In this document: positions 9,135 through 55,365 of the stretch, in pieces | Layout of the letters: the number at the start of each line of letters is the position of its first letter | How positions within the stretch are numbered: the stretch's first letter is position 1 | Assembly (NCBI GenBank): GCA_964187785.1 | Contig: OZ076409.1 | Coordinates: 63,428,001 to 63,492,000 of the forward strand | Direction: 5' to 3' | DNA: 64,000 nt | From: Amphiscolops sp. MND2022 | Lineage: Eukaryota | Notes under the pieces: model-generated | What the model saw: the letters and a program-made list of their open reading frames with translations, nothing else | Told to the model about the DNA's origin: nothing | The model's database searches: none | Translations under genes and position numbers: made by a program

Positions 9135-9513
9135 AAAGGAAAAAATGAAAACGACCTAATGCCTAATAACAATTACGGAAAAAAATACTTAGTTCGCTAA
9201 ACTACTTCGCTCACAAGTGTCTCGTCGAAAAACATTGTTTCCGAAGATAAAAATGAACGCCTCCAAAATAACCGGCAGTGTTCTTTTGCGATGGTCATCA
9301 AACAATAGTTTTGACTAAATGAACGACCGCCATACTGCGTTCCCAGCACCAAACACCCAATGTAAAACCGCAACAACAGATTCTAAGAATACTGTATATC
9401 TTTTGCTATGAATTTATATTTCACTTTTGTCGTTCGAAAATAGTTTTAGATATTTTCATTGCCATAAATAGAAATGGCAAGATATTTTTCGTCTAACACT
9501 GTAGGAGACTAAC

Positions 9514-24500: not shown

Positions 24501-27500
24501 TGTAAAACGGTTAAGTAACGCGTCCAAGTTTATTCGGTCCACGTAAATGCCACTCAAGCTGAAAAAGAACATTGATCAACAAACTATACTTGTTCCTCTT
24601 TTTGTTGATACATGATTTTATACATAGGTACATTAGATTAGTTTTGATGCGGAAACATCGTTGCATTCTTTGATATAAAGTATAGTTTGGCATAGAAGAT
24701 ATATCAATATCCAAATTGTTTTACCTCACCAAGTAGAAATAAAACATGGCGGAGTCAGTCATCTAATTTACAATTTTATACTGATTTTTCAGAAACAAAG
24801 AAGATTACACAAGAAGCAACACAAATCGAAGTTCCGAACTTGGAAGCAACAACCGACGGAAGGAAATAATTCACATCGAACCAATGGCTCGAATGATTCC
24901 GGCAATATACAAAACGAATATTTAAAAAGGATAAAGCGGAATTAATCCGGGGAGAAGAAATGACACAAAACGATTGGGCCATAAAAGAAACCAAGATACA
25001 AGGAGATTTCATATGGGGCATCGGTCCAGAAGCAATATATCAAAAGACAAAAGCAAAATATAAAACCGAACCGGACAAAACTGTATTAAAAGATTTGCTC
25101 CGGTTATTCAACGAACATTTGTTACCGAAAAGAAACACATATCACAACCGCGGAGAATTTTTTGGACCGAACAAATTGAACCCGAGATTTCTGGCGGAGA
25201 TCAATAGAAAGTGAAAAAGAATGTAACTTTGAAAATATAACCGCCAAATAATTGCTAAAAAATAACGAAAAATGAGCATTTGGAAAAAAATGAAACATGT
25301 ATACGAAGATTGTTTCGTATCACCAGTGGTAAAAACGGCAAAGAACGACAAATAGGTAAAAATTGCGCTCTAGACTTACGAAAACTAAGCGACAGCTGCA
25401 TTAAAGTCTGTTCACAGGTGCCGAAATGGAAGGATTGCTGAATCAAATTTCAGTGGAATTAACGAAAGACCGAGCGAAAGAACTAATGATATCAAAAATA
25501 GACGTTGATTACACATATGGTCAAAAGAAGTGATCGAAAGAAACAAGCAGACAATGTGTATTTGCCATTAACGACGGGAACATCAGCGGCTACTCCCGAT
25601 TCAAAAAAAAAGATTTTACGGATTAGCCGACGTGCCCTCAATTTTCGAGGAAAAAATTGACCGAACATTTTAATATTGCGCACCCGCATGGCTAGACGAT
25701 ATCGTAGTAGCATAGTAGTAACACGAGGAGATCGAAAACACCAATAAAAGAAACTGTTCGACGTGCTGAGAAAACTAGAAAAAGCCGGATACAAAGCAAG
25801 CGAAATGAAACCAGAATTTTTTTCATCACAAAACAAAATGGCTCGGACATGAAACAGACGCAAACTGGATCAAACCGAATAAATCAAAAGTCAAAGCTAT
25901 AATGGGTTTGAAACACCCGGACAATCAGAAACAACTAAAATCTTTCCTCAGGCCAATACAGTACCTGGTAAAATTTCGACCGAGATTATCGAAACGAACT
26001 GAGAAATTACGAAAATTATTGAAGAAAATCCCAGAATTGAATTGGGAAACAGAAGAAAACAATTTTGAAATGATAAAAAATATGTTATCTGAACAACCTT
26101 GTTTAGCACATTACGCAAAAGATAAAAACAACATCGTAACAAACGATGCAAGCAAAAGCGGTCTCGGAATAACATTAAGGCAGAAACAAACACGGAGAAT
26201 TGAAACCAATAGCTTCGGAACCAGATTTCTGAACGAAAGCGAGAAGAAGTATTTGATTGGAGAGCTCGAATTTTTAGCAGTCGTGTTGGGGTTAGAGAAA
26301 TTCCGTTCTTACCTATACGGAAAAAAGGTGTTTCTGTATAACGATCATCAAGCATTTGAACCTCTAATCAAAAGAAACAGATGTAACAAACAATACGACG
26401 CTAGACTAATCAAATCGCTAGACCGGCTAGCACACGTCGATATTTCAAAACAATATATAACCGGAAGCAATCCAAAATTTAGGGCTACAACTGAAAACAT
26501 GTATGATGAACAATATGTAATAAACATTCTCACAGATCAAGCCGAATTGAATTTGAAACACGGAAGAATCTTCACGAACCAATCACAACACGCATCGAAG
26601 AATAGAAGTACGTACGAACGCAAATAGAATAACCAATCAGAAACGAGTAGAACAATTGAGAAAAACCGATAAGTTAACAAAATGTACGAACAAACGGAAA
26701 CCAGTCCGAACAGCAACTCGATAAAGTTAAAACGTCAAGAAAAGTTACAAAAACGGAATTGTCAAAAACTGCCATTATCGTCCTCCGAAGAAAAAATGGA
26801 CCGTGGAGATTTTCTTTGGGGAGCAACAGCAGAAGTCGTGAAAATCACTCGAAGACGAGAAAAAAGTCCGAAGATGAAAAGATTATTTGAGAGACGATTG
26901 GAGATAGCAAGACCCAGCACGATGAGAAGATGCTAGGATAAGAATGCACGAAGAACCATCTGAGTCCCGTCGCGACTGAACAAAAGAAGCCAGAAGGAAA
27001 GAGCTCAAATCGACGGAGAACTCATACAACGCACAAACAGATTGGGGGAGGCTACCAATCAATCCAAGCAATCGAAGATGAACCGATCCAAGTTCAACTG
27101 GAGAAGTAACTCCCAGGAGAACAAACGAATGACCCAGAACGTGAAGGGGACAATCAAACCATGCGTGGAGATAATTTGCCAATTGTGGAACTAAGGAACT
27201 CCAACACTGAGGGCAAAGAAGCACACTACGTGCAAATTAACCAATTATTCGGAATCACCAAAGGGAACAATGTGACCGAAAAGATCATAAACCGAGCGGA
27301 AATGGATTTCATGCTAGATCTGAAAAGCATGACTGCAAAATCAGCAACGGATGCCGAATTAAACCGGGTAAAATTACCACTGAACAGAGAAGATTGCACC
27401 ATGGCACCGAAACAATACAGGCAACAATTTGAAAAACTGTCAGTGAAATGGGAATTAACACTCCTAAACGACAAAATCATAGTACCAAACGAATGCCGGA

Positions 27501-29316
27501 AAAGATTGTTGGACATGCTACATTTGGGACACGCGGGAACCATCATAATGACAGGAGAAGCCAAATTTTTTGATGGCCAAACATCAACAGAGATATTAAA
27601 GATAAAGTCAAAAACTGCATAACCAGCCTAGCATCTGGTAACAGCTTAAAATAACAAACGAAAGTGAAAAATTAAAAACTCTCTCCCAACCCGGACAAGA
27701 ACTTCAAATCGATTTTACCGGAAAATTACACAACCAAAAACTGAACGGCGAAAACCAATTACACATCGCAGTAGATAGATTTGGTAATTATCCGAACGTT
27801 AAAATTAGCTAAACTTCCGAAATGAAAGTGATAAAATTCCTAACACAGAAGTTTAACCTGTACGGAATACCGGAGAAATATGAATTGGAAACATGCGGTG
27901 CGTTCATTTTAAAAAAATTTAATGAATTCTGCCAGTAGAAGAATTTTGAAACAGAATACGGAACACGGAGAATACACACTGGTACGGGAGCATTAGAATG
28001 CGCAATATAAACCATAAAGAACTTGGTAGTGGCGAAATTAGAAGACAATTTGTGTTTGAATGTGGTAATACAGCGATAAAGGTATTGCGATTTACTATAC
28101 ACACGGGATTAAAATTAACACCGTTCGATGTGCGTCACGGCAGGAACCTGCGAACCGAATCAACTAATTTGGTTGAAGACGGTAAATCCTACCTTTCTGA
28201 TTGGTCCGAACTATCTGTTTCAGCTGAGTAAATGCCAAAAAGCCCCATCTACTGTCGAGAGGTGACGAGGGGGATATAACGAATTATCTCGTGTTGACGA
28301 AAACACGAGCCGAGGAAAAAGCGGTGGATAAACAACCTAAACAAAAAGGTTTGGTAAGTACCCTTTTACATTTGTAGAGAAAAACTTCATTAGAAAATCT
28401 TTAGAACGTAAATTTCAAAAGAAACAGTAAGCGGAAACGAACACACCGTAACCCATCGAGAATGGAAAATTAATTCGTCGAAAACATATTTCGGGAAAAA
28501 TTTTATTTCGGACAGATAAGAAGAAAAAACAGGCACCGCAAATCGGAGACGAAATCACACCGAAGAACCGACATTGTTTCCGAGGTGTCGACGGAAAATA
28601 CATTCAGTGTAATGAAACACTCCGGGACATAGTCAATGAAAACATGAAAAAATTCAAAACCGGATACGAAAATCTGAATCTGAGTCAGAACGTAAAGAAT
28701 GCGAAATCGACGAGGAATGCAGATTTTGAAATGGAGAATACGGACACTTCCGAAAAGAACGGGTATGAACCGATCAGCAAAAACCGCGAAGACGAGTTGA
28801 ACTTACACACGGACGGTGAGATACCTACCGGTGAGAATGAAAATTATTATTTAACAACCGAAAGTACATCTATTAGAAGATCAAACCGAAAACGCACGCA
28901 ACCTAGTAGATACGGGGAGTGCCATAAACCAAAAACTTTTGGGCGTGAAAAATAAAAATGTATGGTTTGTTTCAGGACTAAACCGAACTAACTTAAGAGT
29001 ACTGCCGAAACCATCGGACTTCGAAAGAGAGACAAGCCCATGCCTGTAACCTCCAAATTTTAAAAGGAAGCCCACAAGGGGGAAAGTAATACGATGAAAT
29101 ACCGCGTCCGAATTCATTCGGTTCACCTAAATGCCAATCAAACTGAAAAAGAACATTGATCAACTATAATTGTTCCTCTTTTTGTTGATACATATTTATA
29201 TACACATGTACATTAGATTACTTTTGATACGGAACCTTTGTTGCATTCTTTGTTATAATGTATAGAAGATATATCAGTATCCAAATTCTTTTACCTGACT
29301 AAGTAGAAATAGAACA
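24501..29316 (+). mobile_element. Old, decayed Ty3/Gypsy LTR retrotransposon with both LTRs
   Basis: Diverged LTRs at 24501-24746 and 29085-29316. PBS tggcggag at 24747, PPT aagggggaa. TSD ctttc/cttgc. RT/RNase H ORF 25902-26627 (DASKSGLG, ELEFLAVVLGLEKFRSYLYG) followed by integrase remnants (LHLGHAG). Confidence 0.9.
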
Positions 29317-31347
29317 CTTGCATACTGTTTAAAGTCTTTCTGAGCATTTTGCTAGGATTGAAATCATGATGTTCATGAAATTGAAAGAATTTTACCAAGA
29401 GATTCAAGATCTGTTTCAATTTGAATTTTTGGTAATAACAGACTTAGACTTTTACGTTTCTAGATTCCAGTATCAGAAAGAGGCAGCGCAGAATTTTTTT
29501 GACTTTGATGACAGGATCTTAAGAGAGACTCCTCCTCGTATTTTTTTAAAATTTTTTATTCCTTTTTTGTAATCAATAATCGCAAGATGACGTACTTTCA
29601 TGGAAGTGGAATTGCAATTCACTGACTCTCGACTGAAATCTGTGTTCTGTAGAATTGCTGTACAATTTTTGAATAATCTGCTTTCAAAGGAAGTTGTAGC
29701 CAGTGACATTGGTAGACTGAGCCGGCTCAACTGGAAACACAAACGTCTGGACCATTCAACTAGAAACATAAATGGAAAAATTGGTATGTCCTGGAGGACA
29801 CCAGTGATAGTAACCAATTAAAAAATAGAATAGTTATGATAACTCGATGTTCATCAAAATGTGGAATCGCAATAACGTTTATCCAGATTTCGTTTCCAAA
29901 TTGGAATCAATTGGAAGAAGCGAATGTAGTACAACTGGTTATACTTTGCTGTAGAGCACGGTGGCCAGCTCTGTCATGTTTGTATTCTACATGTTTGTGC
30001 ATAAATTACTCCGATGCCATTCATAAAACTAGCGAATACATAGTAAACTTATAAACCTGTTTACAAGAATGTGTTACAAACCATATTCGCCTGAGATGGA
30101 TGTTAAGCTCCATAAGGTCAATCTTCGGAAATGAATGCTTGCTAGATCAAACTAAATTGTGAGATGGCGAACTGTCATCAAAATAACTGTCGTCCGTCCA
30201 TCTATGTAAAGAATAAGAAAACATGCATCATAATTCCGAAGTACTGTCTTTCATTCGTAACTGGTACATGTTATGAACGTCCAAAGTTCAACTTTCTAGA
30301 ACCCAATAAATAAGCATGCATGCATGCGCGTTTCTAAGTGTAAAGCTTTGCACAGGCGGGTACTTTAATTTCTGGTAGTACTTGATAAATAAATTGGTTA
30401 TAAATCGAATTAGCGTAGAAATACCATCAAGTAGAAACTTGGCTAAAAGTGTTTGCAACTCGTAATTGAAGCGAAATTCAGGAGATGCGTGCTTAAACAC
30501 CTCAATTGCTGCTTTGAAAATTGCAAATCAAGTGAGCCAGATTGTTGGCTCGACGGTTTCGGTGACGTAATTTTCAGGTGTAATTGACCGGCTTTGATTT
30601 TTCGTATGTTTTAAAATTTCATTCAAGAACAAAATTCAAATACGAATGTTTTCACTATCTGTTCAGCCAAGGTTGACGTCAGAATGTATTTTCAGGTAAG
30701 CATGCAAGTTTTGAGTTTCAGAAATTAATTACAGAGAAGTGCTTTTCAAAACCACGCCGGTAAATTGAACCAATCAATACACTGGATTTCTTGCGAAGAG
30801 TTCAATTGTATGCAAAAATGCAATGAATGTGAATTTTAAATCGTGCGTTGGTTCTGAATCATAAAATACTCATGGATAATGGAATACTCGGTGAAAAACA
30901 GAATGAAAAAATTGATTTTTTTCTTTTCCTTACACTCCGTATTCTGTGAAATACTTCGTATGACGAAATATAATAAATTGCAACCTAGTTATGTGACTTT
31001 TAGTGCCGTCAGTAAAATAGAGTAAAACACACGCTTTAAGAACTTTTTAAAATACAAATAACCCATTCTATCGAATTTTGCTGCAAACATTTTTGAAACC
31101 CAAGGGCCAAAAAGGAAATCAACGACCAGTTCAAACTAAATTTTTAATTTGCATTTTCCTGACATCCATTTTAGATTTAAAAATGGCTTGACTCCTTTTT
31201 CTCATTCTCCCCTGGCTCTTTTTCCTTCCCCTTCACCCCACTCGTCACAAAAACTTGAATTTTATCTAATTCTGAGAATCAAAAGCACTTTTTCTATTTG
31301 TTGTATACTCGTTTCAAGAAAGATAATTCGTTAGCATAAAACTGTAT

Positions 31348-31631
31348 TGTTGCGTTTGCAATAAGATTGAAATTATTTTATTCAATAATCCTTCGAAAAA
31401 ACTTCATAAAATCTGAAATACATAGTAAAAAAATATCTTTTTTTTGGAAATATCAAAAAGTTAGTTCTTTGCTATCTCGAAATCATGGCTCATATTTGTT
31501 CATGTAAATTTCACTTGGTTTCTTTAAAAAGTTGCGGGATTGAATGATTTATTGTTCCCACATATGTTTTCTTCGAGTTTCATTCATTTGTCTTAATTCA
31601 AATACAAACTTTAGTCGCCTAAAGTTTTATA
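31348..31631 (+). repeat. 5' LTR (284 bp, TG...TA)
   Basis: Differs from the 3' LTR by two substitutions and one T in a homopolymer (by eye). Confidence 0.95.
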
Positions 31632-32619
31632 TGGTGGCCATAGAGAGGCACTCACAACCATTCGCGTAGTCTTTACAACAAACAATGAAGAAATGTATAG
31701 CAGAACGTTATCTCGCAAATCTGGCCACAATTATAACCCAAAACTAATTGTAGTGGCTGTTACCTACTCACGCAGTTATCACTGCCACTATTCGAGAATT
31801 CAACTCAAAACCTGGTTAACTTTCATCCACAAGGTCAGCTACGCCAGAGGTCGGATAAAAATCAATAGAAAATCCGGCAGTCTACATTCATTGGTCTTTG
31901 TTCAATCTGCTTCAATTGTTTGACCCACTGCCTCTGTTCAACTACTGGAGGAAACAGAAACTTTCGAAATCCACAACAGTGACCAATTCAGCCAACACTT
32001 ACACTTTTCTCCAACCAATCTCCGCTCCCGACAAGGTTCTAGGTAATCGGACTGAGAAGGGCGAGCGACATCCTTAGTATTGAGGCAGCAGAACGCAAAA
32101 GATAACTGGCGAGCTACTGATGGGAAACCCGTGACGAACAATAGGGAATTCCCCCGATGGCAAATCACTGAAAGTTCTTCCCTGACCTCTGGAAGATATC
32201 GTTACTAACACAACTGTTAGAAACCTATTTACATCTGTATTTTTTAATAGTGTGCTTGGATTTCGAGATAGCAAAAGATTATTAAAAAAAAAACAAAAAA
32301 GCAGCCCATTTGAGTAACTTTTGTAGAATCCTCGTATTTATTTCCTGTTTTTTTGCGACATTCTGCGATTTGAATTGAGCTGTAGTTTTACAAAAAAAGG
32401 CATGTAAAGTTTCATTGAAACAAAATCATCTGACGTTTCGGAATCCGTCTAACAGGAAACCCTGATTTCTTTGATGATTTGACCCAGTCGTTTCAAAAAA
32501 AATCTAAGAAAAATTTTAAAAACAATTTTGAGATTCCTGCGAATCGTTTGAGGTCATAACTGAAGAATAACCCCACATTCTGTTAAGTGATAAATATGAT
32601 CTTCTAACAAAAAACACGC

Positions 32620-33234
32620 ATGGTTTTCATCTTAGCCGCTAGTTCTCTACACCATGCTCTCGAAACCTTAACCATCGAAGAGAAAACTCGATATAACGAC
32701 AAGATTTTCTCTATCCCGGGTCTGAGTCTTAATCCTAAAACAAAAAATCCGAAAAAAGTAGTGCAAAACTTGCTCTCAAAAGATCTCGCCGAAAAAAACG
32801 ACATTGTTATTTGGCATGATGTCCTGAATAACAGCATTTCTCGACACGATAGTAAAAATTTTTGTTCTTTATCAGTACCTGATTTGATTGAAGTCTTAAA
32901 AGGTTTTCATGACAAGCTTTGTGCTCTGGTGTATTGTCATCGCTATCGTACCCCGGACATTTTTGAACAATTGAAAGTGTTAGAAGCCGATCTGCACGTC
33001 AAAGTGTTCAACATTGTCAGAGACTTTATTTCACCGAAAAAACAAAAGGATGCCGAGCTCCTGAAAAAATTTAAAGCACTGCACCAGAGCCCCGAGCTTG
33101 AACTGAAAAATCTCGACTTCTTGCTCCGTAAAGAGAACGATCTTTCTGTGATTACCGAGAAAAGCCGCCCAAAGAGGCCTAGCAAGCGTGCCCAAAACGC
33201 TATTAAAAGAGCATCTGTGAATCCTTCACGGTAA
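32620..33234 (+). CDS. ORF0 of the BEL element: 204-aa protein with SGNH/GDSL-like motif pattern and basic C-terminal tail
   Basis: Intact ORF between PBS and gag. Block-like motifs VFILAASS, SIPGLS, DIVIWHDVLNN and ALHQS. Homologous relic at 61180-61757. The fold call is inference. Confidence 0.7.
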   Translation: MVFILAASSLHHALETLTIEEKTRYNDKIFSIPGLSLNPKTKNPKKVVQNLLSKDLAEKNDIVIWHDVLNNSISRHDSKNFCSLSVPDLIEVLKGFHDKLCALVYCHRYRTPDIFEQLKVLEADLHVKVFNIVRDFISPKKQKDAELLKKFKALHQSPELELKNLDFLLRKENDLSVITEKSRPKRPSKRAQNAIKRASVNPSR

Positions 33235-33869
33235 CACCCCGTTTTCTCTTGACTGTGGAGACAGTGTCCAGACTTCACTGTCTGGTTGAAGTTTCCACAG
33301 CTCGTTGCTTGTTTCAGAGTTGTGTCCAGACTTAGTTGTCTGGTTGATACTCTGTAAACTTATTCAATTTTTTAACGGGGTCCAATTTTTATTGATTGAT
33401 CAAAATTGCGAAAGCTGACTCAAACTTTCTTTAATTACTAGGAAAAGGTTTCTAGTCTTATTCCGGGCCCACATTTAATTTTTCCGATAGTTACCGTTAA
33501 CAATTAATTCTTTTTAGAGTATTCGCTTTTTTTATTAATTAATGATTTTATAATTCAGTTTTCATCTCTCACTGTTAAAATAGTGTCCGGACTTAATTGT
33601 CCAGTTGAAATCCTGCCAGTCCATCTCCTTTAACAGCAACTCGCTTTGAGATAGCGTTTCTAGCGCAACTTCGGGTTTTGTCTTTCGTCTCCGTATTCTG
33701 TGACTACTTTTACACCCCAAAAAGTCAATCCTTTTCCAACTTTCCACGATCAGCCGCGTCTAAGCTTCGTTGCTTGGTTGACGCTGACGAAGGGAAACCT
33801 GAGAACTTTCCTGATCATCACCCAAAGACCACTACCTTGTTGAGTCTATAACGCAATCACTCGAGTAGA

Positions 33870-36716
33870 ATGGCTAACACCATGCAAGAAAAAGTCAAAA
33901 AACTTTTCGAAAGTCGTGCCAAAGCCGAGATCGAGTTACAGAGATTGCATGAGAAAGTCCAAGATGCTGTGGAGAACAAAGATAGACGTGTCCGCATTGA
34001 AAGACTTGTTACTTCCTGTGACGAAGCAATGACTAAATTGTTTGCCAAACATGAACAACTTTTCGAACTCGCAGGCAAAACAGAAGACCCGTCACTTGTT
34101 ACACAAGATTTGGAAACTTGGTTGAAAGAAGTGACCACTCGAAACGATGAGATTTTAAAGAAGGCTCGTGACTACATCGATCAATGTCCACTCGTCGATG
34201 CAGCATCTCAATCGTCAACGACTGTCACCAAAAGCAAGCAACCAAGCAAAACGTCAACTTCAAGGACATCCAGACAATCGAGAACATCCAGTCAACGACA
34301 AAGGGACTTGCTAATTGCCAAACAACGTAAGGTGGAGATAGAAAGGCAAAACGAAGCCGCCCTTAGATTTGCAAAGCAACAGCAGGAACTGGAACTCGAA
34401 CGTCTACAGGAAGAACAGGAACTACTTAGACTGAGAACCGACCGACTTAGGAAAGAACAAGCACTTGAAGTTGAACAGTTAGAAGAAGAAAACCGAAAGA
34501 AACTAGCTGAAGCAACACTCACCGAGCTTGAACTGACAGACGACTTGTCGGACTCTCAATCAGAGCTTCTGGACACGGTGACGCAATTAGCTACTTCGAC
34601 TAAAGCTGACGATACGCTCCGAGTAAGCGAGTGGGTTAACAATTCACCCATTACCACTGCAAGTCACCCCGCAAACACTGCAGTTTTGGACACAAACACT
34701 GTTACCGTTACTACTGCAGCGCCACAATCGGTCGATATGGGGGCTCCCACAAAAACCCCATTACCTAGCAATCCAGTAGTGATTTCTGTAACTCCACCGC
34801 CCGCGCCAACGGCTAACGACAAGCCATCAGTTACGGGACTAGGTTCATTAGTTTACATACCAACTATGGAACCTGTCCAAAATCCACAACTAACTACGAC
34901 TCCTCCGAGAACTTCTCCTTTGATTACCGCTACGGTACAGCCAGCGCCCACAGTCACAGTTCCCGCAAGCCATCTTCTTCCAAACTTATCGGCCTGGACG
35001 TTCCCGACAGGACCAAGCAACCCGCATGTTGGCGCAACTCCTGTAACCACGAATCAGAATGTAATTCCGACAGTTCTTCCGACTACCAGTGTTGCCACAA
35101 CAACCTCGCCTATTATTCCAGTCACCGCTGGAGGAACCGTATACTACATTAACCCGACGTCTATGGCAACAGTGTCCGCACCGAACAGCGCACCAATTCC
35201 GAGTACATTCCCGACCATTCCTTCAGCAACGCAATTTGCACCTCCTACGTTCATCTCTGCACCGCAACCAGCGACAAGCAGTTTCACTGTTCAAGATCTT
35301 GCGCAACTGTTAGCTTCGTCAAAGAGGGACCACCTCCCGGAATGGAAACTGGCACAGTACAGTGGAGACCCACTTCAATGGCACGAGTGGTATGGTCAGT
35401 TCAAGAGTGCCATCGATTCAGCCCCGCTGACCGATGACGTAAAACTGACTTATCTAAAGACACTGGTGTCAGGTAAGGCGAAGACTACTATCGCAGAGTT
35501 TGCCTACAGCGGTACCATGTACAAAGATGCGCTGAAAACGTTGGAACGAAAGTTTGGGCAACCTCAAACCGTGGTTAGTGCCTATCTTGACAAACTTGCC
35601 AACTATCCGCCAGTCAAAATGCACAATAGCGATAGCATCATCAGCTATTCTGCCACTGTTTCCTCACTTTTCGGCGTTTTCCGATCCTTGAATTACCTCC
35701 AGGATTTGTCGAGCGCTTCGCTCATGAACCAAGCAGTTCAAAAACTTCCACCGAATTTGAAGGAAGCCTGGTCTATGAACACTGTCAAACGGAACCTGGA
35801 CCGGCCGACGTTGATTCACTTCAATGACTGGCTGAAGGAAAAAACAGAAGCGCACGAACGCATGAAAGCCACCTCCAGTAAACCAAGGACTGAAGAAGCT
35901 TCTGCCAACACTGTCACTAAGACAAAAACGGGAACCAAGGTTTTTGCGGCGACCACGAGCAATCAAGTGAAAACTGTCCCCAAGATTAGAAGTGAGAAAC
36001 AGTGCATAGCCTGTAAAGACAGTCACCCACTGTGGCGATGCTCAGTATTCCGCCAAAAAACTCCAACTGAAAGAACCAAGCTGGCTGCCGAGAGTAAACT
36101 ATGCTTTTCATGTTTGAACGACGGACATTCATTCCGACAATGCCCGCAACCAAGAAAGTGCACCAAGGAAGGCTGTAGTAGCTCGCATAACACTTTACTG
36201 CACGGCGCCGATAGAATTTTCCCTCAGAAAAGTCTCGGCGATACAGAAACTACCCAAAGTAGTAAAACAAAGGTCAATCAGAAACAAACCGGCAGTGAAA
36301 GTTCCGGCCTGCCTTCCGTAATTGATTACAAAAGCTTGTTGCAAATAGCAGAAGTTCAGTTGGACTCATTGTCAAGCTCCGTGAAAGTCCTCGCTTTATG
36401 CGACTCAGCTTGTAGTCATTCTTGGATCTCAAGGAGTTTAGCTCACAAACTACGAGTCAAAGGCTCAGCAACCAAGTTAACCGTACACGGGATAAATTCC
36501 CAGCAAGTGGTCGACACAGAAACAGTTGAGCTTAAGTTGACGCCCTTTCATTCGGGTGGCTCTTGTTCAACTTTTCCTGTCACGCCTTATGTCCGAGATG
36601 ATTTGAAAGTGGGAAACGACGTCATCGACATTGACAATCTGAAAAAGATTTACCCACATTTAGAACCGATCCCCCTCAGCAAGTACAGCTATTCAAAGAT
36701 GTTGTACAGATATTGA
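33870..36716 (+). CDS. BEL/Pao gag + aspartic protease (frameshifts into pol near 36700)
   Basis: Coiled coil, long Thr/Pro linker, BEL gag core (YSGDPLQWHEWYGQF...KLTYLKTLVSG), three zinc knuckles (CIACKDSHPLWRC, CFSCLNDGHSFRQC, CTKEGCSSSHNTLLH), protease ALCDSACSHSWI. Confidence 0.93.
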   Translation: MANTMQEKVKKLFESRAKAEIELQRLHEKVQDAVENKDRRVRIERLVTSCDEAMTKLFAKHEQLFELAGKTEDPSLVTQDLETWLKEVTTRNDEILKKARDYIDQCPLVDAASQSSTTVTKSKQPSKTSTSRTSRQSRTSSQRQRDLLIAKQRKVEIERQNEAALRFAKQQQELELERLQEEQELLRLRTDRLRKEQALEVEQLEEENRKKLAEATLTELELTDDLSDSQSELLDTVTQLATSTKADDTLRVSEWVNNSPITTASHPANTAVLDTNTVTVTTAAPQSVDMGAPTKTPLPSNPVVISVTPPPAPTANDKPSVTGLGSLVYIPTMEPVQNPQLTTTPPRTSPLITATVQPAPTVTVPASHLLPNLSAWTFPTGPSNPHVGATPVTTNQNVIPTVLPTTSVATTTSPIIPVTAGGTVYYINPTSMATVSAPNSAPIPSTFPTIPSATQFAPPTFISAPQPATSSFTVQDLAQLLASSKRDHLPEWKLAQYSGDPLQWHEWYGQFKSAIDSAPLTDDVKLTYLKTLVSGKAKTTIAEFAYSGTMYKDALKTLERKFGQPQTVVSAYLDKLANYPPVKMHNSDSIISYSATVSSLFGVFRSLNYLQDLSSASLMNQAVQKLPPNLKEAWSMNTVKRNLDRPTLIHFNDWLKEKTEAHERMKATSSKPRTEEASANTVTKTKTGTKVFAATTSNQVKTVPKIRSEKQCIACKDSHPLWRCSVFRQKTPTERTKLAAESKLCFSCLNDGHSFRQCPQPRKCTKEGCSSSHNTLLHGADRIFPQKSLGDTETTQSSKTKVNQKQTGSESSGLPSVIDYKSLLQIAEVQLDSLSSSVKVLALCDSACSHSWISRSLAHKLRVKGSATKLTVHGINSQQVVDTETVELKLTPFHSGGSCSTFPVTPYVRDDLKVGNDVIDIDNLKKIYPHLEPIPLSKYSYSKMLYRY

Positions 36717-36717
36717 G

Positions 36718-39700
36718 ATGATCCTTGGTCAGGATGTCTTCCACTGTATCCGCCCATTGGAGTACTTCGAAGCCGACCGTCCGAATACTCCGATAGCCGT
36801 CCGTTTGCCGTTAGGTTGGGTACTGAGTGGTCCACTTCCTTCCACTACGGGTCTTTTCTCGACTTGTTTCAAAGCTGTCAGTAGCTCAGAGAATGATTCG
36901 ATTCTTGCCGATCAACTTCGCAGCTGGTATGACATGGAGTCATTCGGCGCCTACAAACAAGCTGATTCACGCTCCGCAGCCGATGCGCAAGCGATGAAAA
37001 TTCTTGAAGAGACAACATTCAACGATGGATGCCGTTACCAAGTTGGTATGTTGTGGGCCGATGACGAAAGTACGTTACCGAACAACTACGTCTCGGCTCT
37101 CGTTCAACTCAAGTCTTTAGAACGCCGCCTAGGGAAAGATCCTCAACTGAAAGAAAGTTACAGCAAAACAATCAAAAAGGATTTTGAAAAAGGGTATATT
37201 GTTCAAGTCGATAAATCCGAATGCTTTCGAACTGATAACCGTCGTGAATGGTATTTACCACATCACCCCGTGATACATCCTCACAAACCCGGTAAAGTGA
37301 GAAGAGTTCTGAATGGCGCCGCAAAGTTTCACAGTTATTCTCTGAACAATGCTCTTTTAACTGGTCCAGATCTGCTGCAAAGTTTGATCCATATCGTTTT
37401 TAGATTCCGTCAATACCCCAACGCCGTATCCGCCGACATCAAAGGAATGTTCCTACAAGTAGGGGTTATTCTGAAAGACCAGCCGTCTCTTCGCTTTCTG
37501 TGGCGGGAAGACCCATCAACTGAAGTTGCTGTTTTTCAAAACGTAAGGCACATCTTCGGTTCGAAAGACTCACCGACATGCGCAAATTACGCCCTAAAAA
37601 GGACCGCTACAGACAATGTTGAAGATTTTCCGACTGTCGCCTAGAGCGTGCAAACAAACTTCTACATGGACGACTATCTCGAATCTAGTCCGACAGCTGA
37701 AGAAGCCATTCAAAAAGCTAAAGATTTGACAAAATTGCTTTCAATTGGTGGATTTAAGCTAATAAAGTTCATGTCTAACGACTCCAACATCCTGCAACAA
37801 ATCGAACTGAACTCTGACAGCCAAACCAACGATGGTAAACTGTTACTATCAACAGAGGAATCATCACATGTACTTGGCCTCAAATGGAACCATGCCTCAG
37901 ACACACTTGTTGTTAGCCGAGGCACAACTCCTGATACAAACCGAACTGTTACTCAAAGAATTGTCCTCAGCCTCGTCTCCGCAGTTTACGACCCTATTGG
38001 CCTCGTAGCTCCGTACACAGTGAAAGCCCGACTTCTACTCAAAGACATATGGAGACTGAGTGGCCAGAAATGGGATGACATTCTCCCAGATGACATTATA
38101 ACCAAGTTTCTTGACTGGAGTTCTGAATTGGGTACACTTAGCGAACTCAGGACTCCGAGAAGTTATTTCCAACAAAAGGTGGAACGTCTGGAGTTACATA
38201 TGTTTGGGGACAGTTCACAAGATGTTTTCAGTGCAGTAGCTTTCCTCAGAGGCAAAGTCATCAGCGGCGATGACAGTTCTACTGAAATAGCCTTTGTTTT
38301 CGGCAAAGCACGAGTCGCACCAATGAAAGCTTTGACCATTCCTAAACTCAAACTGCAGGCCGCACTGCTTTCCGCTAGATTGAGAAATGAAGTGCAGCGT
38401 GCTTCAACTCTGCAAATCGAGAAGACTTTCATGTGGACCGACAGTACTACGGTGCTTCAGTGGTTACACTCCCTTGAAAATTAGCCTGTATTTGTTGCAA
38501 ACCGCGTTGCGGAAATACTCGAACTAACGACTGCCGACGAATGGTACCATGTTCAATCCGCTGACAACCCTGCGGATGCTGGAACTAGAGGTTTGTCCGC
38601 CAAAGGTCTTTTGCAGAGTAGTTGGTTAAGCGGTCCCAATTTCTTGAAAACAAATGAATGGCCTTTCAAGCCATCCGAAGGCTTCCGACCGAAACTGAAA
38701 CAAACTAAATTGGATCCTACCGATCAACCCAGTACTGAGTCGTATACAATGCTGTCTGAAACCCAAGTTGCAACAGCGAAAACTTTCGAGTGGCAGAAGT
38801 ATGGCTCGTACGAGAAACTCCTGCGCATTGCAGCCTATGTTTTACGGCTTCTGTCGAGAAATAGGGACTACAGGACAAACTCTTGCGTCATCACTGATCC
38901 TACTGAACTTGGAAATTCTGAACAACGTCTTCTCTACCTGACCCAAGCAGAATCATTCCATGCCGAAAAAAGTAACCTGCTGAAGTCAACCCCGCTCAGT
39001 AAATCTTCGAAAATTGTCCGATTCTCCCCCTTTATTGGACCAAACGGTCTTTTACGAGCGTCTGGCCGAACAAGACTACTCGAAACTGCCACATTTGATG
39101 TCAAACACCCCATTCTATTGGATGCCCGTCATCCACTAGTCAGACTTTTCCTAGAACATTTACACTCCCAACATTGCCATCAGGGCGTTGACTATCTGAG
39201 AGCGTTGGTACAGCAGCGATTTGCTGTAGTCAAGCTGAGAGCTGTCCTGAGAACCATTGTTTCGAGATGCCTAACATGCCGTAAACGAAATGCTGAAACA
39301 CTGACTCCAATAATGTCCGACCTACCTCGCGAAAAGCTGGCGTTTAAGGAACCTCCTTTCTCAAACACTGGGATTGATTACTTCGGACCGTTTTTCGTAT
39401 CAGTGAAAAGGTCGACTGAAAAACGGTGGGGCTTCCTTTTTAATTGTCTGACGACTCGCGCCGTTCACTTTGAAGTTGTTCCCAGTATGGATACCAGCAA
39501 TTGCGTGATGGGGATTGAAAGATTTTGTGCCCGCCGTGGAATCCCCATCAGTAATCTGGTCTGACAACGGGACAAACTTCGTTGCCAGCGAGAAAGAGCT
39601 TTTATCCAACATCAAAATTTGGAATCAACAAGTTCTCAGCGAGTCACTTGTTAAGAAAGGGATCAAGTGGAAGTTTAACCCTCCAAGTGCCCCCCCACCA

Positions 39701-40245
39701 CGGAGGTGTTTGGGAACGTCTAATTCGTAGCTTTTTTCTACGCCGTTTTAGGGAACCGCCGTTTGACAGACGAAATCTTGACGACGACGTTTTGCCTGGT
39801 GGAACAATGTCTCAACGCCCGCCCAATCACACCCGTTAGTCCTGAAGCTACTGACATCGACACCCTCACAGCAAATCACTCTCTTCTTGGAACACCTAGT
39901 TCAACATTGCCGTCACACTTCCGCCCCGAAATAGACCATCGAAAGCGATATGTTCGAGCTCAAACGTATTGGGACGCAATTTGGAATCGTTGGCTCAAGG
40001 AGTACGTTCCACACCTCAACTGTCGCTCGAAATGGTTCCAATCGTCAGACCGACATCTGAAAACCGGAGATCTTGTCTGGCTAGTTGAGCCTACCGCACC
40101 AAGAGGACACTATCCACTTGGTCGCGTGGTGAAGTTAAACTACGGCACCGATGCCATCGCCCGTTCAGCTGAAGTCAAGACCTCAACCGGAAACCTTGTT
40201 CGCCCAGTTGTCAAGCTCGCTCCCGTTCTCCCTATTTCCGAGTAA
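36718..40245 (+). pseudogene. BEL/Pao pol (RT, RNase H, integrase) with in-frame stops and frameshifts
   Basis: WYLPHHPV, LNNALLTGPDL, FYMDD, YDPIG, LHMFGDSS, KARVAP, TGIDYFGP and WSDNGTNF. TAG at 37642 and 38482. Frameshifts near 39545 and 39690-39740. Confidence 0.93.
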
Positions 40246-40382
40246 ACAATAAGTAAAAAGTGAACTATTTCATTCATTTCGTCATATTCATTGTTTTTGT
40301 AACAAGTATAACAACTACAAATAAAAAGTTTTTTTTACTATTGAAGTCTTTCATTTGTCTACATCTTCTTGGGCCCGGAGGA

Positions 40383-40665
40383 TGTTGCGTTTGCAATAAG
40401 ATTGAAATTCTTTTATTCAATAATCCTTCGAAAAAACTTCATAAAATCTGAAATACATAGTAAAAAAATATCTTTTTTTGGAAATATCAAAAAGTTAGTT
40501 CTTTGCTATCTCGAAATCATGACTCATATTTGTTCATGTAAATTTCACTTGGTTTCTTTAAAAAGTTGCGGGATTGAATGATTTATTGTTCCCACATATG
40601 TTTTCTTCGAGTTTCATTCATTTGTCTTAATTCAAATACAAACTTTAGTCGCCTAAAGTTTTATA
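40383..40665 (+). repeat. 3' LTR (283 bp, TG...TA)
   Basis: Direct repeat of 31348-31631, followed by the TGTAT TSD. Confidence 0.95.
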
Positions 40666-40670
40666 TGTAT

Positions 40671-42965: not shown

Positions 42966-44133
42966 AAAAGTCGGAAAAAATTTTCGACTACTTATGCAAT
43001 CGTGTCGTTTTTTTTTCTTCCGACCTTTTCATGAAAATTTCAAATTTCTCAAAAACTGTCCATACGACTTTCATAAAATTTTGCACAGTCATTCTACACC
43101 CAAAGGGGCCCCTGCGTGCGCAAAGGCATCAAAATCGTATGACTGGAATGTCAGAAACATAGCCAAAATTAGCCCAAAAATGGCCAAAATTAGCCCAAAA
43201 AAAGCCATTTTTCGACTTTTTTCGATTTTCTCAAAAACTGTCCATACGATTCGAACGAAATTTTCTACAGTCATTCTACACCATATTAGAGTCCTGTAGG
43301 TGCAATGGCATCAAAATCATATGGCTGGGATGTGAGAAACATAGCCAAAATTAGCCCGAAAATGGCCAAAAAACAGTCATTTTTCATTTTTTTTTCGATT
43401 TTCTCAAAAACTGTCCATACGATTCGAACGAAATTTTCTATAGTCATTCTACACCATTTTATGGTCCTTTATGTGCAACTTCATTATATTCGTATGGCTT
43501 CTATGTCACAAACATAGCCAAAATTATCCCAAAAATGGCCAAAAAACAACCATTTTTCGACTTTTTTGATTTTTGCAAAAACTGTCCATACGATTCGAAC
43601 GAAAATTTCTAGTCAGTTTCTACACCATAGTGTGGTCTATGTGTGCAATTTCAATAAATTCGTATAACTGGGATTGGAGCGAGGCAGAAGGAAAAAGATC
43701 TAAGCCGACTCCTAAGGGGAGCATGGCGCAGTGTTTAGAGCATTCGGCCTGTACTGGGGCGGTATCAGGTTCGAATCTCTCTCAACTCACCATTGTTGGT
43801 CCTTAAGCAAGTCCTTCATCCCTAGCTTAGTGGTATGGTCAATGACAAAAAATAACGCATTTGGCGGAGAAAAGCAAAACAAAAAGAGCAACGGTGAGCA
43901 GTCAGACCTTTGTGACCTTGAGCAAGTTACTTTGAAACCACAGCTTCAAGTCCACCATTACTTGAGCACTTGGCTGCAAATATGGTACCATAGCTTGCTA
44001 TGGGGAGATAGCATCCGAAAGGGCGCCGACATAGAAAAGCAGAACTGCTTATTCGGCGTCCACCCCGCGGTAATGGGGAAATTAACTTCTCTCTTCTAAG
44101 CCGACTCCTTTACCGCAAATGCGGCTCTGGTTA
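42966..44133 (+). mobile_element. HINE family B element with internal ~170-bp tandem repeats, interrupted by a SINE
   Basis: 5' aagtcgg...ttcgact and 3' ccgactcct-ttaCCGCAaaTGCGG-ctctggtt stem-loop. Repeated aaaaactgtccatacgattcgaacgaaattttcta units. Confidence 0.75.
43714..44094 (+). mobile_element. tRNA-derived SINE with a perfect 15-bp TSD
   Basis: TSD tctaagccgactcct at 43699-43713 and 44095-44109. A-box tggcgcagtgt, B-box ggttcgaatc, CORE-like tgtgaccttgagcaagttactt at 43911. Confidence 0.92.
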
Positions 44134-50414: not shown

Positions 50415-52335
50415 CGGTGAACAAAAAACGGAGCGCACAAATAGTTGCGATCTCAAAGTCGTATTATTTGTAAACAAGGTACTGTAAATCTTCAATTTTC
50501 TGTCAATCGTTTTGATTCAAGCTTTTATTACGTAATCACATCTTTAACTAAGGATAGTTCGATCCATCAGAAATAGGTGAACCGAAAAAAACGGAACGCA
50601 CAAATTTTTGCATCTTCGAAATCGTACTATTTATAAACAAGGCACTGCGAATCGTTCAAATTTTCTGCCAATCATTTCGATTGATGATCATATTACGTAA
50701 TCACATCTGCAACTAAACAGTTCGAACCATCAAAAACAGTCTAGACGTCTTGATCAGTCTTTTCGTACTCCTTTTAACATGTGAAAGTTTTTTGCGTCTG
50801 AGGAAAAATGGTAATTCCAATGATTGACAGCAGCGTTCAAAGTTGTTTTCAAACGTTTGTTGACAAGCATTTAAAACTTTGAGAGGTCAAAAACTTTTGT
50901 GTGTTCCGTTTTTTGGTTCACCTAGTAGACATCCCAACCAGTAACTTCGTACTCACTTTTAATGTTTGATAGCTTTTTGTTCGCTTCTAAGAAAAGATGC
51001 TGATTTGAATGATTGACAGCAGCGCAAAAAGTTGTTTCCAAACGTTTGTTGACAAATATTTGAAACTTCGAGAGCTCGAAAAGTTTCATGCGTTCCGTCT
51101 TTTTTGTTCAATTAGTAGATGACCAAAAAAGGGTTGACGCATTGATCAAATGTGCGCGAACAAACCATCGAAATGGATCTCAAAACGAAGTGAAGCAAGA
51201 AACACGGAACGCGCAAAATGTTCACGGTTCAAAATCGTAATATTTGTAAACAAGACACTGAAAATCTTTCCTTTTCTGTTAACCGTCCTCCTGTTACGTA
51301 ATGTGAATCTTTAACAAAGAATGATCCGAACCTTCCGAAAAAGTCTAGACCAATCATTTCGTTCACACTTTTAATGTGTGAAAGCTTCTTGGCTTCGAGG
51401 AAAAGTCGTCAATTTGAATAACTGGCAAGTTGAATTGGAATGTTCAAAGTTGTTTTGAAATGTTTGATGACAAATATTTGACGTCTTAAGAGTACAAATT
51501 TTTTATGCGTTTCGTTTTTTTTTGTTCACCCACCAAATTTTTTGAGATCTGAAAGTTCCAAATATTTTTCAACAAATGTTTCAATACAACACTGAACATT
51601 GCAGTTCAGCTTGTCAGTCATCTGATTTACGTCTCTTCGAAGCAAATAAACTTCCACACATCAAAAGTGTGAACGAAATGACTAGTAAAGACCTCTGGAC
51701 TTTTCTGAGTGAGTGTTCGGATCTTTTTTAGTCGGCGCTTTTCTTTAGAAAAGAGTCGACTATAGTCATGGCTTTTCGTCAGTGTTTTTTAAGACCACCT
51801 GAACTGACCAAAATAGTTCTACAAAAGTTCTACAAAATGTTATTGCACCAAATTGCACCATTTGGCCTAGCGAACTGAACCAGAAAGGTTTTTCCTGTTT
51901 TTCCGCGTAACATACCATACCGGGCGAAACCAAAGGGTCCCCCTTTCAGTTTTTTTTTGGCATTGTGAGACTTTTTTTCCAAAAAAAAATTTTCCCCAAA
52001 GGGTCTCCCCTTCACTGTTTTTGCTGTTTTGCGACAGAATGGATGTTGGAAAATCCCTTTCAGTTTTTTCGGCATTGTGAGATTTTTTTTCCAAAAAAAT
52101 TTTTCATGAAAGGGTCCCCAACTCACCAATACTTTGACATATTGAAGTCCTTTTTAGTATTTTTGAGCCTTATATATGGCGCCGACTTGGGCCGTTCCCG
52201 GCTTGTTTTGTTGAATATTGGATTACGTGATGGGAGATTGATTGACAGAGAAAGTTTTTCAATGTCTTGTTTACAAATATTACGATTTTGAAGAGTGAAT
52301 TTTTGTACGTTCCGTTTTTTGTGGTTCGCCTAGTA
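50415..52335. repeat. Cluster of related, diverged MITE-like units in both orientations
   Basis: Terminal motif ggtgaacc(a)nacggaacgcacaaa at about 50416, 50576 and 51190, and its reverse complement at about 50895, 51085, 51500 and 52300. Confidence 0.7.
51724..52207. mobile_element. HINE family A, complete copy
   Basis: ttttttAGTCGGCGCtt...gtcgacta at one end and GCGCCGACTtgg-GCCGttccCGGC-ttgtttt at the other, inserted in T-runs. Confidence 0.85.
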
Positions 52336-54102
52336 ATGCGTGTACCGTTTTTGTTTCGGGTAACCTTGGTTCACAAATATCAACTGATTCACGAATATCA
52401 CTTTTTTCAAGCAATCGAGTGAGCCAACTGTAAATTTTTTGACCACTCGAATTACAAAGTATTTTCAAGTTTATTCAAAACAGTTGAAATTCGCTGTCAA
52501 ACTTGCCAATAAACTGGTTCGCCAAAGTAATTGTCGATTTTGGTAAGGGACGTGTCGTTCAAAGGCAAAACATTCATCAAATCAAAGATCTTTCGAAATG
52601 TCTTTGGAATAAAATATCAAAGTTAATAGTTAGTTGATCAATAATTTCTGCTTACAATCCAATTACTGTTCGAGAAGTTATGAGAACCATGTTTTCGACC
52701 AATTTTAGCAAAAAATTTTCACGATTCATTGTTGTAGCCCTGAGTTTCCTCTAGAAGCTTTCAAGCTTTCCGATTTGATTTCCAATTGATTTTTTTATCA
52801 CAAATGAAGACAAACTACAGGAAAAGTTTAATCACAAATGAAACTTTGTTTCACCTAACTTTAATTCATGGGGCAAGATTTTCTGCTGGAGTTTTCAGGT
52901 GTGAAGTTTTGGTAGAAACGTCAATTGGAAACCTTCTAGAGGATACCCTAAATGATTATATCCTGAACTCTGCCACATTCGAAATCATTATAAATTTTGA
53001 TTTTGATTGTGAAGATTTTTTTCGGAAAATAAGTGAATTACAATACAAATCAGATCTTTCCTCATTGATACATCAAAAATTGACAGTAAAAGTTGATTTT
53101 TTGTTGAATGTTTAATGATTGGTCATCCTGAGAAGCCTTGAAACTTCGTGTTTGAAATATTTATTACGTACTACCATATTCACTTTGGGTGGCTGACAGT
53201 AAAACGACAAACGTTCTGTCGCCCCTTTAAAAGATTCAGAGACTAATAAAGTTTCCCCGGTGCACGCCTAGTACTGGGAGACCCGCAAAACGCGGCACAC
53301 TTCAAACGTTCTCAAATTTGACGATACAAACATTTTTCAACAAGAAGTCGAAATTTCTGCAAGTTTCATTTTGTCACTTGTGAATCCCTTAGAACAAAAT
53401 CAATTTCGAAGACAACATATAATTAATTTTCATGTTTTTTTGTCTTAAACTTTTGTCTTTTCGGCCGTACAAATTCATTTACTTCTATCTTTTGAACGGC
53501 AGTAAGAACTTACCACAACATACTCACGAAAACTTGAAAAAAATTGTAACCTTGTTTTTTGGAGGCAACACACTATAAAAGCAAAAGGGGGAAGTTTCGG
53601 AGACCAAAAAGGGCTACCAAAACTTTACCGATGTATAATGCCAAGATATGCCAGTTACGTCCATCAGAAACAAAGAAAGAACCTGTGTCAAGTAGCGCGT
53701 AAATAAGGTACAAGTGAACAGTAGCTCCAGTGGGCAACCCCACCCGAGGTGCAGCGACACCAACGGAGCAAATTGAGGAAGACATCGTCAAGAACTTAAC
53801 CGCGTTTTCCAAAATGTCATGATATCTCACGCGAAAAAGAATCAAGAAGAACCCGGGTTGACACCCCAAACGTAGATCAAATATTTCGGGGTCCGTCAAA
53901 TCTAGGCCGAGAAGTAACAGATATCGTAATCTGACACAGATATGGCCCCATACGAAGAAATTTAGACAAGACGTCCGCTGAGCAACGGGATATTTCCCGC
54001 TTCAACTGAGCCATAGATATTTTAGTTACTTGACTATTTTAGTTACTATTAACTAAAATAGTCAAGTGCATTGAGATCGTGGAGATTTGGCAGAATTTGG
54101 AA

Positions 54103-54590
54103 AACAAGACGAGAACGTCTAAAGTCGGCGCCATATCTAAGGCTCAAAAAGCGTAAAACACTTTTTTTGGAAAAAAATTGAAATTTTTGAAAATTTTTCT
54201 CTCAAAAGAAGTTGCATAGTGCCGAAAAATGTAAAAGGGGGGACCCTTCTGGATTTATTAACAAACATTCCGTTGCAAAATATCAAAAAACTCAAAGGGG
54301 GGACTCTTTGGGGACATTAAAAAATTTTCGAAAAAAAGTCGCACAGTTCCGAAAAAAATCCAAAAGGGGACCCTTTGGGCACGTCCGGTTTTGTATGTTT
54401 CCTTGAAAAAGTAAAAAATGAAAGGGGGGACCCTTTGGAGTAAAGTTTGCCTTGGGCGGACTTGGCCTCAGGTGCTCTGGGCAGAATTGTGAAAAGTGGA
54501 CCGATCAGTGTGAGGATTGTAGTCTGAAGAAAAAAAAAGGTCACTGCTATAGTCGGGCATTTTTCCTTAAAAGGAAAACGCGCCGACTAA
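54103..54590. mobile_element. HINE family A, complete copy
   Basis: aacaagacgagaacgtctaaagtcggcgcc ... tagtcgggcatttttccttaaaaggaaaacgcgccgactaa. Confidence 0.85.
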
Positions 54591-55365
54591 AAACGCTACA
54601 CAGATTATGATTTTCTTCCCCCATTATATGTAGGCGGAAAATGGCAGTCACTGGCAACTAAAACTTCATTTGATTCGTATTGCTTTGTATTTTGTATCTT
54701 GCTTAGTATTTCTTGTATGGTTAGTATTTTGTATAAAATTTCGCCGTCCATAGGCACCTTTCACAGCTCAATACTACCTGCAGATGCATTGGTGACCTGC
54801 AAAGTGGCGATTCCCAGCCAAATCATTTCATATGCGAAAATGTCCAGAACATTACTAAAACGTATCCCTAGTTAATAGCAATTACTAAAATCAGAAACAT
54901 GTTCCCACAACACTACAGCAACAGTAGTTTATCAACACCTCTACCGACGCAGAAGGTCGATACATGCCAAACTTCATTGGCCAAAACGAAACCAATGTCG
55001 TAAATGGGCTTCTCAAACTTGAACAACCACTCTTCGACTGAAATGTATAAAAGTCCGTGTGAAACAAGACTATCGTCCAGAGGACAAATTCCAATTTCCA
55101 GGCGTTGCTTCGTCTCTATCAGGTCTGGGCGAGAGATTTCTTAACGACAGAAACCTCTGGGGTAACCAAAACTTTGAAACGAGAGCAATTAAAACTTTCA
55201 GTGTTACCATATCCATCCCCTCATCATTCTTCTAACAGTCCAATGAAAAACCAGTTTTGTTGTTGGGGAGTTGTGCTATTCCTCACACTTGTATTCACGA
55301 CAAAAAAGCTTTTTCTAATGTCTTGTTTCTATCTCAACGTTGACTTCACCTGAACTTGCTATGTT

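Follow-up and report, generated by a model that had tools for sequence, protein, structure and literature searches.

A conserved first ORF with a predicted SGNH hydrolase fold is shared by BEL/Pao, Gypsy and LINE elements and carries an apparent leaky-scanning signature

An open reading frame of 204 aa, here called ORF0, stands between the PBS and gag of a BEL/Pao retrotransposon of Amphiscolops sp. MND2022, and we find this extra gene to be genuine and subject to purifying selection between families. The family is not specific to BEL elements, as relatives also stand in Gypsy and LINE elements, and its start codons carry an apparent signature of leaky scanning; both points were missed in a first-pass annotation of the 64,000-nt stretch of DNA analysed here (contig OZ076409.1, hereafter the window). 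The best joint explanation, to which we assign a probability of roughly 0.6, would be a cassette gene that ribosomes pass by leaky scanning and that encodes a Ser-His lipid acyl-esterase.

The ORF had been described as lying inside TSD-bounded LTRs, and it was recovered at the same coordinates with the motifs VFILAASS, SIPGLS, DIVIWHDVLNN, KALHQS and RPKRPSKR in its translation (Table 1). The host element is young (an alignment of its two LTRs shows 2 mismatches and 1 gap column), TSD TGTAT flanks it on either side, and LTR, PBS and PPT are all present. The Pfam domains DUF1759, Peptidase_A17, Integrase_H2C2 and DUF5641 place it in BEL/Pao, with a gag-pol that comprises DUF1759, protease, RT, Peptidase_A17 region, integrase and DUF5641. 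Gag-pol is one frame of more than 2100 codons in 5 of the 40 close copies. In the window copy it is spread over six open frames with at least five breaks, as the first-pass annotation had said of pol. The intactness of ORF0 beside this broken pol had been taken as evidence, an argument that fails since a 615-nt ORF stays whole with a probability of 0.62 at the break rate of this copy. Across copies, ORF0 ends in a stop 80-970 nt upstream of the next ORF.

Table 1. Features of the BEL/Pao element and its ORF0 (positions in the window)
Feature	Position	Strand	Remark
Left TSD TGTAT	31343..31347	.	sequence
5' LTR, 284 nt, TG...TA	31348..31631	+	
PBS, TGG-starting 18-mer	31632..31649	+	common to most close copies
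Leader, about 970 nt, 7 AUGs	31650..32619	+	unalignable between sister subfamilies
ORF0, 204 aa, predicted SGNH-fold domain (residues 1-177) and basic tail	32620..33234	+	
Ser8, putative nucleophile (block I)	32641..32643	+	72/75 distant relatives
Gly34, putative oxyanion Gly (block II)	32719..32721	+	70/75 relatives
WHDVLNN, putative block III; Asn70 or Asn71 as oxyanion Asn	32812..32832	+	
His155, putative catalytic base (block V); residue at -3 is not Asp	33082..33084	+	
Lys/Arg-rich tail, predicted helix 189-200	33166..33219	+	
Spacer ORF0-gag, 635 nt, one AUG (3-codon frame)	33235..33869	+	
BEL/Pao gag-pol, at least 5 breaks, AUG with A at -3	33870..40245	+	
Polypurine tract	40365..40382	+	
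3' LTR, 283 nt	40383..40665	+	
Right TSD TGTAT	40666..40670	.	sequence

The leader between the 18-nt PBS and ORF0 (window 31650-32608; compared in L031-L069) is unalignable in almost every subfamily, even at 92% ORF0 identity, and similarity picks up again 11 nt 5' of the ORF0 AUG. From the alignments, this slot seems to be exchanged frequently. Captured host DNA was rejected as the source of the leader, which apart from the window itself matches a single sister copy and a 225-nt stretch at 75%.

The first-pass annotation had made its reading depend on other copies of ORF0 and on purifying selection among them, and both were found. A genome search gave 3385 candidate matches; among the 150 that were scored (67-100% identity) about 125 are stop-free by a count made by eye, and BEL gag and pol follow ORF0 in 39 of 40 close copies fetched. 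The dN/dS ratio was estimated by the Nei-Gojobori method on unbroken ORF0s (39/41), with 100 of 741 pairs saturated. It is 0.088 for 418 pairs at dS 1-3, and 0.145 (111 pairs) and 0.228 (79 pairs) in further, younger bins, with counts that are not independent because pairs and families are related and with copies chosen by ORF0 similarity. The 23 very young pairs give 0.527, and RT gives 0.057, 0.158 and 0.365 in the bins with data. The rise in young pairs is the mark of neutral decay after insertion, so selection acts in the replicating lineages and not on host-fixed copies.

Databases hold 304 close relatives, and 800 relatives among 50%-identity representatives at E <= 0.001; start position and length of ORF0 are fixed across the three element classes. 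The gene is optional. It is carried by 8 of 40 gag-picked BEL copies (5/12 families) and absent from the other 32 (7/12 families), a sample that represents one Pfam-favoured part of BEL diversity, and the sister families that lack it would serve as natural controls for testing ORF0. No relatives were found in viral contigs, in prokaryote genome contigs (close alignment only) or as longer fused forms of 495-2000 aa (weak search). Tandem ORF0 units occur in one BEL copy (L040) and one Gypsy copy (L118), and L093 contains an ORF0-only LINE 5' piece as well as a second 207-codon frame on the opposite strand.

An SGNH-hydrolase-like pattern had been read from the motifs of ORF0, and structure prediction agrees with it. 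The better of two AlphaFold models, built from 75 diverse relatives, has a pLDDT of 95.3 and a pTM of 0.87. In a VIA search of 48,161 PDB representatives its listed matches were SGNH/GDSL entries over residues 1-177, and the top rows, GDSL lipases included, range from Z 11.4 to 10 with rmsd 3.2-3.8 A over 143-160 residues. The acetylxylan esterase AlAXEase ranks first (Z 11.4, rmsd 3.7, 159 residues aligned), the OatA catalytic domain has the same Z of 11.4 (rmsd 3.2, 143 aligned), and Oskar OSK (PDB 5a4a) reaches Z 8.4. The best Foldseek match is the GDSL lipase 3p94 (E 4.8e-4, TM 0.53), and ESM features of ORF0 fall in GDSL clusters. The comparison with SGNH folds that had been proposed as a check thus gave matches. 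The first model, from 121 close rows (pLDDT 84), gave VIA Z 11.2 and no Foldseek match under 0.001; a BFVD structure search with ORF0 also gave none under 0.001, and the ZfL2-1 structure is not among the VIA matches listed for either model. Sequence searches gave no such match. The Pfam SGNH families (Lipase_GDSL, Lipase_GDSL_2, OSK) are not among the matches listed for ORF0, its 121 close and its 75 distant relatives, PDB sequence searches returned nothing significant, and hhalign of ORF0 against TesA and the canonical esterases of this genome gave a non-significant probability of 0.2-3%. A Pfam match to TPR_ZFYVE26 (86/121 relatives, best E 8.8e-5) was set aside as spurious given the predicted fold, and an origin from the LINE esterase L144, tempting by its GSSI/QDGTN motifs, gains no support from hhalign, which was not significant. 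The predicted fold of ORF0 is the three-layer alpha/beta fold of an SGNH hydrolase; the family, with its 800 representatives at 50% identity, would be invisible to Pfam and is overlooked by annotation.

Residues of ORF0 were mapped to the SGNH blocks by spacing and secondary structure, not by residue-level superposition. Among relatives at 26-76% identity, Ser8 is kept in 72 of 75 and, a single gapped row excepted, in the 78 genome rows with an assigned class; it follows strand 3-6 of the model in a motif G/A-A-S-S/C-L instead of GDSL. Gly34 (70/75), Asn70 (62/75) and Asn71 (70/75) are located after strands 2 and 3, and His155 is present in 72/75 distant relatives and in all 78 genome rows. 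The spacing S8/N70/H155 is close to S10/N73/H157 of TesA, as given in the available text of PMC10792757. The Asp of the DxxH motif is absent in 75/75 relatives, position 152 being K, R, Q, A, L or S. The first-pass annotation was correct about the kept Ser and His; of the replacements that it named, the loss of the DxxH Asp alone extends to the whole family, the block I Gly being retained in 52/75 relatives. Its wording of a 'degenerate' module is not supported, as all 75 relatives together show hardly any variation at the S, G, N and H positions. Family-specific invariants are W65, H66, D67, H76, S138 and E161. The model has no transmembrane segment, and the tail is basic in all classes (a mean of 10 K+R in the last 30 residues; pI 8.8-11.7).

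These residues bear on whether ORF0 is an enzyme. It could be a catalytically dead SGNH fold like Oskar OSK, which would bind RNA or lipid and package or localise the element RNA, for example in germ granules, through its basic tail. The missing Asp, the extra polar invariants, the high pI and the presence of OSK among the fold matches are consistent with such a role, and membrane binding by ZfL2-1 is independent of its active site according to the accessible part of PMC3905857. On the other side, Ser8, Gly34, Asn70/71 and His155 stay near-invariant in ORF0, whereas Oskar is without the triad (PMC10792757, in part), and active esterases outscore OSK in VIA. In five SGNH structures a main-chain oxygen replaces the catalytic acid and some active enzymes lack the DxxH Asp, as described in the accessible portion of the same article (PMC10792757). 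A Ser-His dyad in ORF0 is thus no less likely than a dead fold of the Oskar kind; on residue conservation we lean slightly towards the dyad, and the dead fold as a whole appears unlikely.

Two distant relatives were used as queries and gave 40 further loci, hand-picked to span subfamilies: 21 BEL, 13 LINE, 4 Gypsy and 2 without class. The RT of the 21 BEL loci is 26-80% identical to that of the window element. The LINE carriers have, where intact, a PHD or zinc-knuckle ORF1 and an endonuclease-RT ORF2, and the Gypsy carriers are 4 copies of one family with PR-RT-RH-INT and 157-nt LTRs. In the LINE copies the shared sequence begins 15-240 nt 5' of the ORF0 AUG and runs to the 3' tandem tail; with homology starting just ahead of the AUG, ORF0 is the first ORF of these LINEs. 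Relatives of ORF0 also occur in 18 metagenome contigs (30-54% identity). In three of these the gene is accompanied by ORF1 and a complete endonuclease-RT ORF2, and several further ones have a similar ORF1. One candidate Gypsy carrier, L070:1601-5327, was rejected: a BEL-type ORF0 is followed by a truncated Gypsy RT-RH-INT, probably rearranged or nested, and transposase-like frames lie upstream on the opposite strand.

In two metagenome contigs ORF0 stands behind a GIY-YIG frame, in one case fused to a PIF1 helicase, and these are Helitron-like. The two relatives (L162:1140-1766 and L163:3735-4208, the latter with PIF1 helicase and GIY-YIG) keep their internal Mets, and no ORF was seen behind them. 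An esterase has reportedly been found in a Helitron before.

The ORF0 tree was computed from 55 of 81 rows after 26 near-duplicate BEL rows were dropped. On it the BEL label needs 5 changes and the LINE label 6, and the AU test rejects a single BEL clade (p 6e-6). At the deepest BEL split, the inner branch of the RT tree measures 5.6 changes per site against a path of about 2.2 for ORF0, and the RT and ORF0 trees (quick trees of 26 rows) pair close families differently. ORF0 has very probably been swapped between element classes as a cassette.

Start-codon statistics were collected on 33 family representatives (25 BEL, 7 LINE, 1 Gypsy). Internal Met is found in 3 of 6623 ORF0 residues vs 75 of 6550 in the next ORF; Met content is 0.2% in the 75 database relatives vs 2% in canonical esterases. 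Between the ORF0 start and the next start, ATG occurs 145 times vs 377 expected and ranks first of 64 triplets in depletion, vs 23rd in the next ORF. A purine at -3 is present at only 3/33 ORF0 starts vs 27/33 next starts, and the -3 pyrimidine at the ORF0 start recurs in 18 of 21 deep lineages (p 0.003 vs local composition). The noncoding spacers are AUG-poor as well (BEL 27 vs 97 expected). No AUG separates the two starts in 6 of 12 metagenome contigs examined, and four contigs in which no downstream ORF was seen contain several AUGs. Out-of-frame AUGs in LINE number 4 vs 19.3 under a synonymous shuffle (0/200 as low); no such depletion was seen in BEL (98 vs 107.9, 17/200 as low) or in the single Gypsy family (2 vs 1.9). 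A weak first start is thus followed by a strong downstream start, and the upstream ORF is AUG-free or holds mini-frames only, the last point being partial in the clade of the window.

In the window, the ORF0 start has C at -3 and G at +4, internal Met is lacking, and 5 out-of-frame AUGs open frames of 2-21 codons. The leftover ORF0 AUGs of its clade open frames with a median of 3 codons, none above 30 and none overlapping gag (median 15 in the gag control), and 70% of them have a purine at -3. The leaders of this clade span 420-1558 nt with 1-30 AUGs, and four of the seven AUGs of the window leader have a purine at -3; distant BEL leaders have 0-5 AUGs. Plain cap scanning would not cross such long, AUG-rich leaders well, and in this clade, the window copy included, an internal start, shunt or splicing must be added to scanning. 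No shared acceptor-like sequence was seen by eye before ORF0 or gag. Judged from these codon patterns, leaky scanning with mini-ORF reinitiation probably leads from ORF0 to gag or ORF1, with less confidence for the window's own clade.

The main competitor of scanning is that ORF0 and gag each have an RNA of their own, owing to an internal promoter or to splicing within the variable leader or spacer, with the AUG pattern left as a relic of a scanning ancestor. The long, AUG-rich and unalignable leaders of the window's clade would fit this, as would BEL out-of-frame AUGs that are not below the synonymous null. Separate RNAs would not explain why noncoding spacers are also AUG-poor, why leftover AUGs are confined to mini-frames, or why the pattern recurs in an unrelated ORF (type B, below), and the lack of a shared acceptor-like sequence by eye also speaks against them. 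We regard separate RNAs as an improbable account of the family; the account can be true of the window's clade and scanning of the rest.

The type B ORF has 201 aa and occupies the same PBS-gag slot in a gag-picked BEL family without ORF0. It carries SDSL, VPG, GGN and DxxH motifs and GDSL-like ESM features at 0.94, has 799 candidate genome matches, and shows no profile similarity to ORF0 by hhalign. In eight representatives 4 AUGs were counted where 78 would be expected, none of the 1580 residues is Met, and all eight combine a weak ORF start with a strong gag start. Type B thus appears, by its motifs and codon usage, to be an unrelated SGNH-like ORF that repeats the design of ORF0. The type B loci (L174-L176, L178, L186, L208-L216) have a full DxxH and lie in BEL families other than that of the window element, and in L208 the ORF is continuous with gag-pol in a single frame of 1975 codons. 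A distant BEL lineage (L205-L207) has a complete 198-aa GDSL-type ORF inside both of its LTRs of about 1.27 kb, at 992-1585 and about 8910-9510, which makes two per element; L218 belongs to the same lineage. In a Gypsy family (L132-L139, L143), a canonical GDSL domain with the motifs GDSI, GTND and DGIH lies within the C-terminal frame of the integrase or follows it closely. Four probable LINEs (L140, L141, L144, L145) have a canonical esterase ORF of about 300 aa and then an endonuclease frame, which in L140 and L141 begins with a hydrophobic, signal-like stretch. Across BEL, Gypsy and LINE elements, the esterases of this single genome fall into three or more separate families.

That esterases were captured three times independently here, and that ORF0 was gained, lost and exchanged repeatedly, could also point to an arms race, in which ORF0 would be an active de-acylase directed against host defence or against a host protein or glycan (counter-silencing). 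The top fold matches are acetyl-esterases and O-acetyltransferase domains and the basic tail could be an NLS; however, selection is strongly purifying overall and not diversifying, and at 8-17% identity the fold rank does not tell the substrate. We find this reading doubtful, and less credible than the dead fold or separate RNAs. A chance frame, or a captured host fragment in neutral decay, can be dismissed: the intactness of the window copy is uninformative and Pfam gives no match, but a dN/dS of about 0.09, the 800 relatives, the confident compact fold and a start and length fixed in three classes all contradict it.

In the cassette reading that we prefer, ORF0 would be a conserved stand-alone accessory gene, first in the BEL/Pao, Gypsy and LINE elements studied here, and cassette exchange would have moved it between them. 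Most ribosomes would pass its weak AUG and reach gag or ORF1. The product would likely be a Ser-His lipid acyl-esterase that binds acidic membranes, by analogy to the ZfL2-1 esterase, and, in line with what has been proposed for that protein, may guide particles or RNPs of the element to membranes; we put this membrane role forward tentatively, at somewhat below even odds. If it is small, free to diffuse and present in sub-stoichiometric amounts, the protein would suit capsid-forming and non-capsid elements alike. A more general version, at just short of an even chance, would be a plug-in first cistron (an SGNH gene with a weak start and an AUG-free body) whose design BEL evolved twice and which supplies a general lipid-dependent step in trans. 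If true, such a cassette spreads over BEL, Gypsy and LINE without blocking downstream translation, and BEL evolved the same design from unrelated esterases, once inside the LTR, which would argue for a general lipid-dependent step of retrotransposition. The repeated uptake of SGNH esterases by unrelated retroelements has called for an explanation ever since CR1 and ZfL2-1 were studied, and the free-standing protein of 200 residues offers a small, soluble object for tests of activity, substrate and localisation.

SGNH esterases have been described in ORF1p of CR1/L2, RTEX and Penelope-like elements, and the ZfL2-1 esterase is slow, basic and binds acidic phospholipids (PMC3905857, accessible part). 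CR1/L2-type ORF1p and ORF0 are alike in their SGNH fold (predicted for ORF0), in being basic and in standing ahead of pol in retroelements. His66 of ORF0 lies four residues before Asn70, as the transposon-specific H191 of ZfL2-1 lies before N195 in the available text of PMC3905857, and S228 of ZfL2-1 has no clear Ser equivalent in ORF0; both are comparisons of spacing. The ZfL2-1-type esterase is a domain of ORF1p with a coiled coil and a full Ser-His-Asp triad, whereas ORF0 is a separate first ORF without the Asp, stands before an ordinary gag or a PHD-type ORF1, and could not be linked by profile comparison to the canonical esterases associated with LINEs in this genome. Oskar OSK resembles ORF0 in being basic and in its SGNH fold (Z 8.4 to the ORF0 model) and differs in having no catalytic triad, where ORF0 retains Ser, Gly, Asn and His.

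The GDSL ORF3 of rotifers is shared between retroelement classes, namely bdelloid Vesta LTR elements and Athena/Terminon PLEs, in the accessible text of PMC5408684 and PMC6431247. Like ORF0, it is a stand-alone GDSL ORF in LTR elements and is shared across unrelated classes; it stands behind pol, and in the available part of PMC5408684 its evolution within the genome is reported not to differ significantly from neutral. ORF0 in contrast is 5', under strong purifying selection between families, and present in BEL, Gypsy and LINE. Amphibian Ngaro elements have an extra SGNH ORF of unknown role (bioRxiv 2021.08.05.455354, in part); there it sits after the tyrosine recombinase of a DIRS-order element, whereas ORF0 leads its element. 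Accessory ORFs before gag are known from Gypsy elements of plants and insects, namely rice Retrosat2/RIRE3/RIRE8 (also called ORF0; PMC3485330) and the MDG1 group (sORF1/sORF2; bioRxiv 2025.03.14.642691). In the accessible portions of both sources these are limited to Gypsy lineages and are fast-evolving or transmembrane, with no SGNH fold shown in them. For RTBV and badnaviruses, the available text of PMC5902531 describes experimentally proven leaky scanning past ORFs I and II, downstream of a shunt leader, and RTBV shares with ORF0 a suboptimal first start, a long ORF that is AUG-free or has short internal uORFs, and a strong start of the capsid/RT polyprotein behind. RTBV is a plant pararetrovirus; ORF0, known here from its sequence signature, would be a candidate for leaky scanning of the pararetrovirus kind in retrotransposons of animal type. 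In the literature covered, with Repbase and subscription journals outside its scope, no esterase ORF was found that stands alone at the 5' end, none that belongs to a BEL/Pao element, and none described as having a leaky-scanning design.

Other repeats were noted in the window. To the left of the BEL element, two direct repeats (24502-24685 and 29086-29265) are 85-88% alike and 4.58 kb apart, and perhaps belong to an older LTR element. Repeats of 170-190 nt and other AT-rich repeats are present as arrays and dispersed copies at 43004-43629, 50424-51521, and 8133-8842 with 54100-54593.
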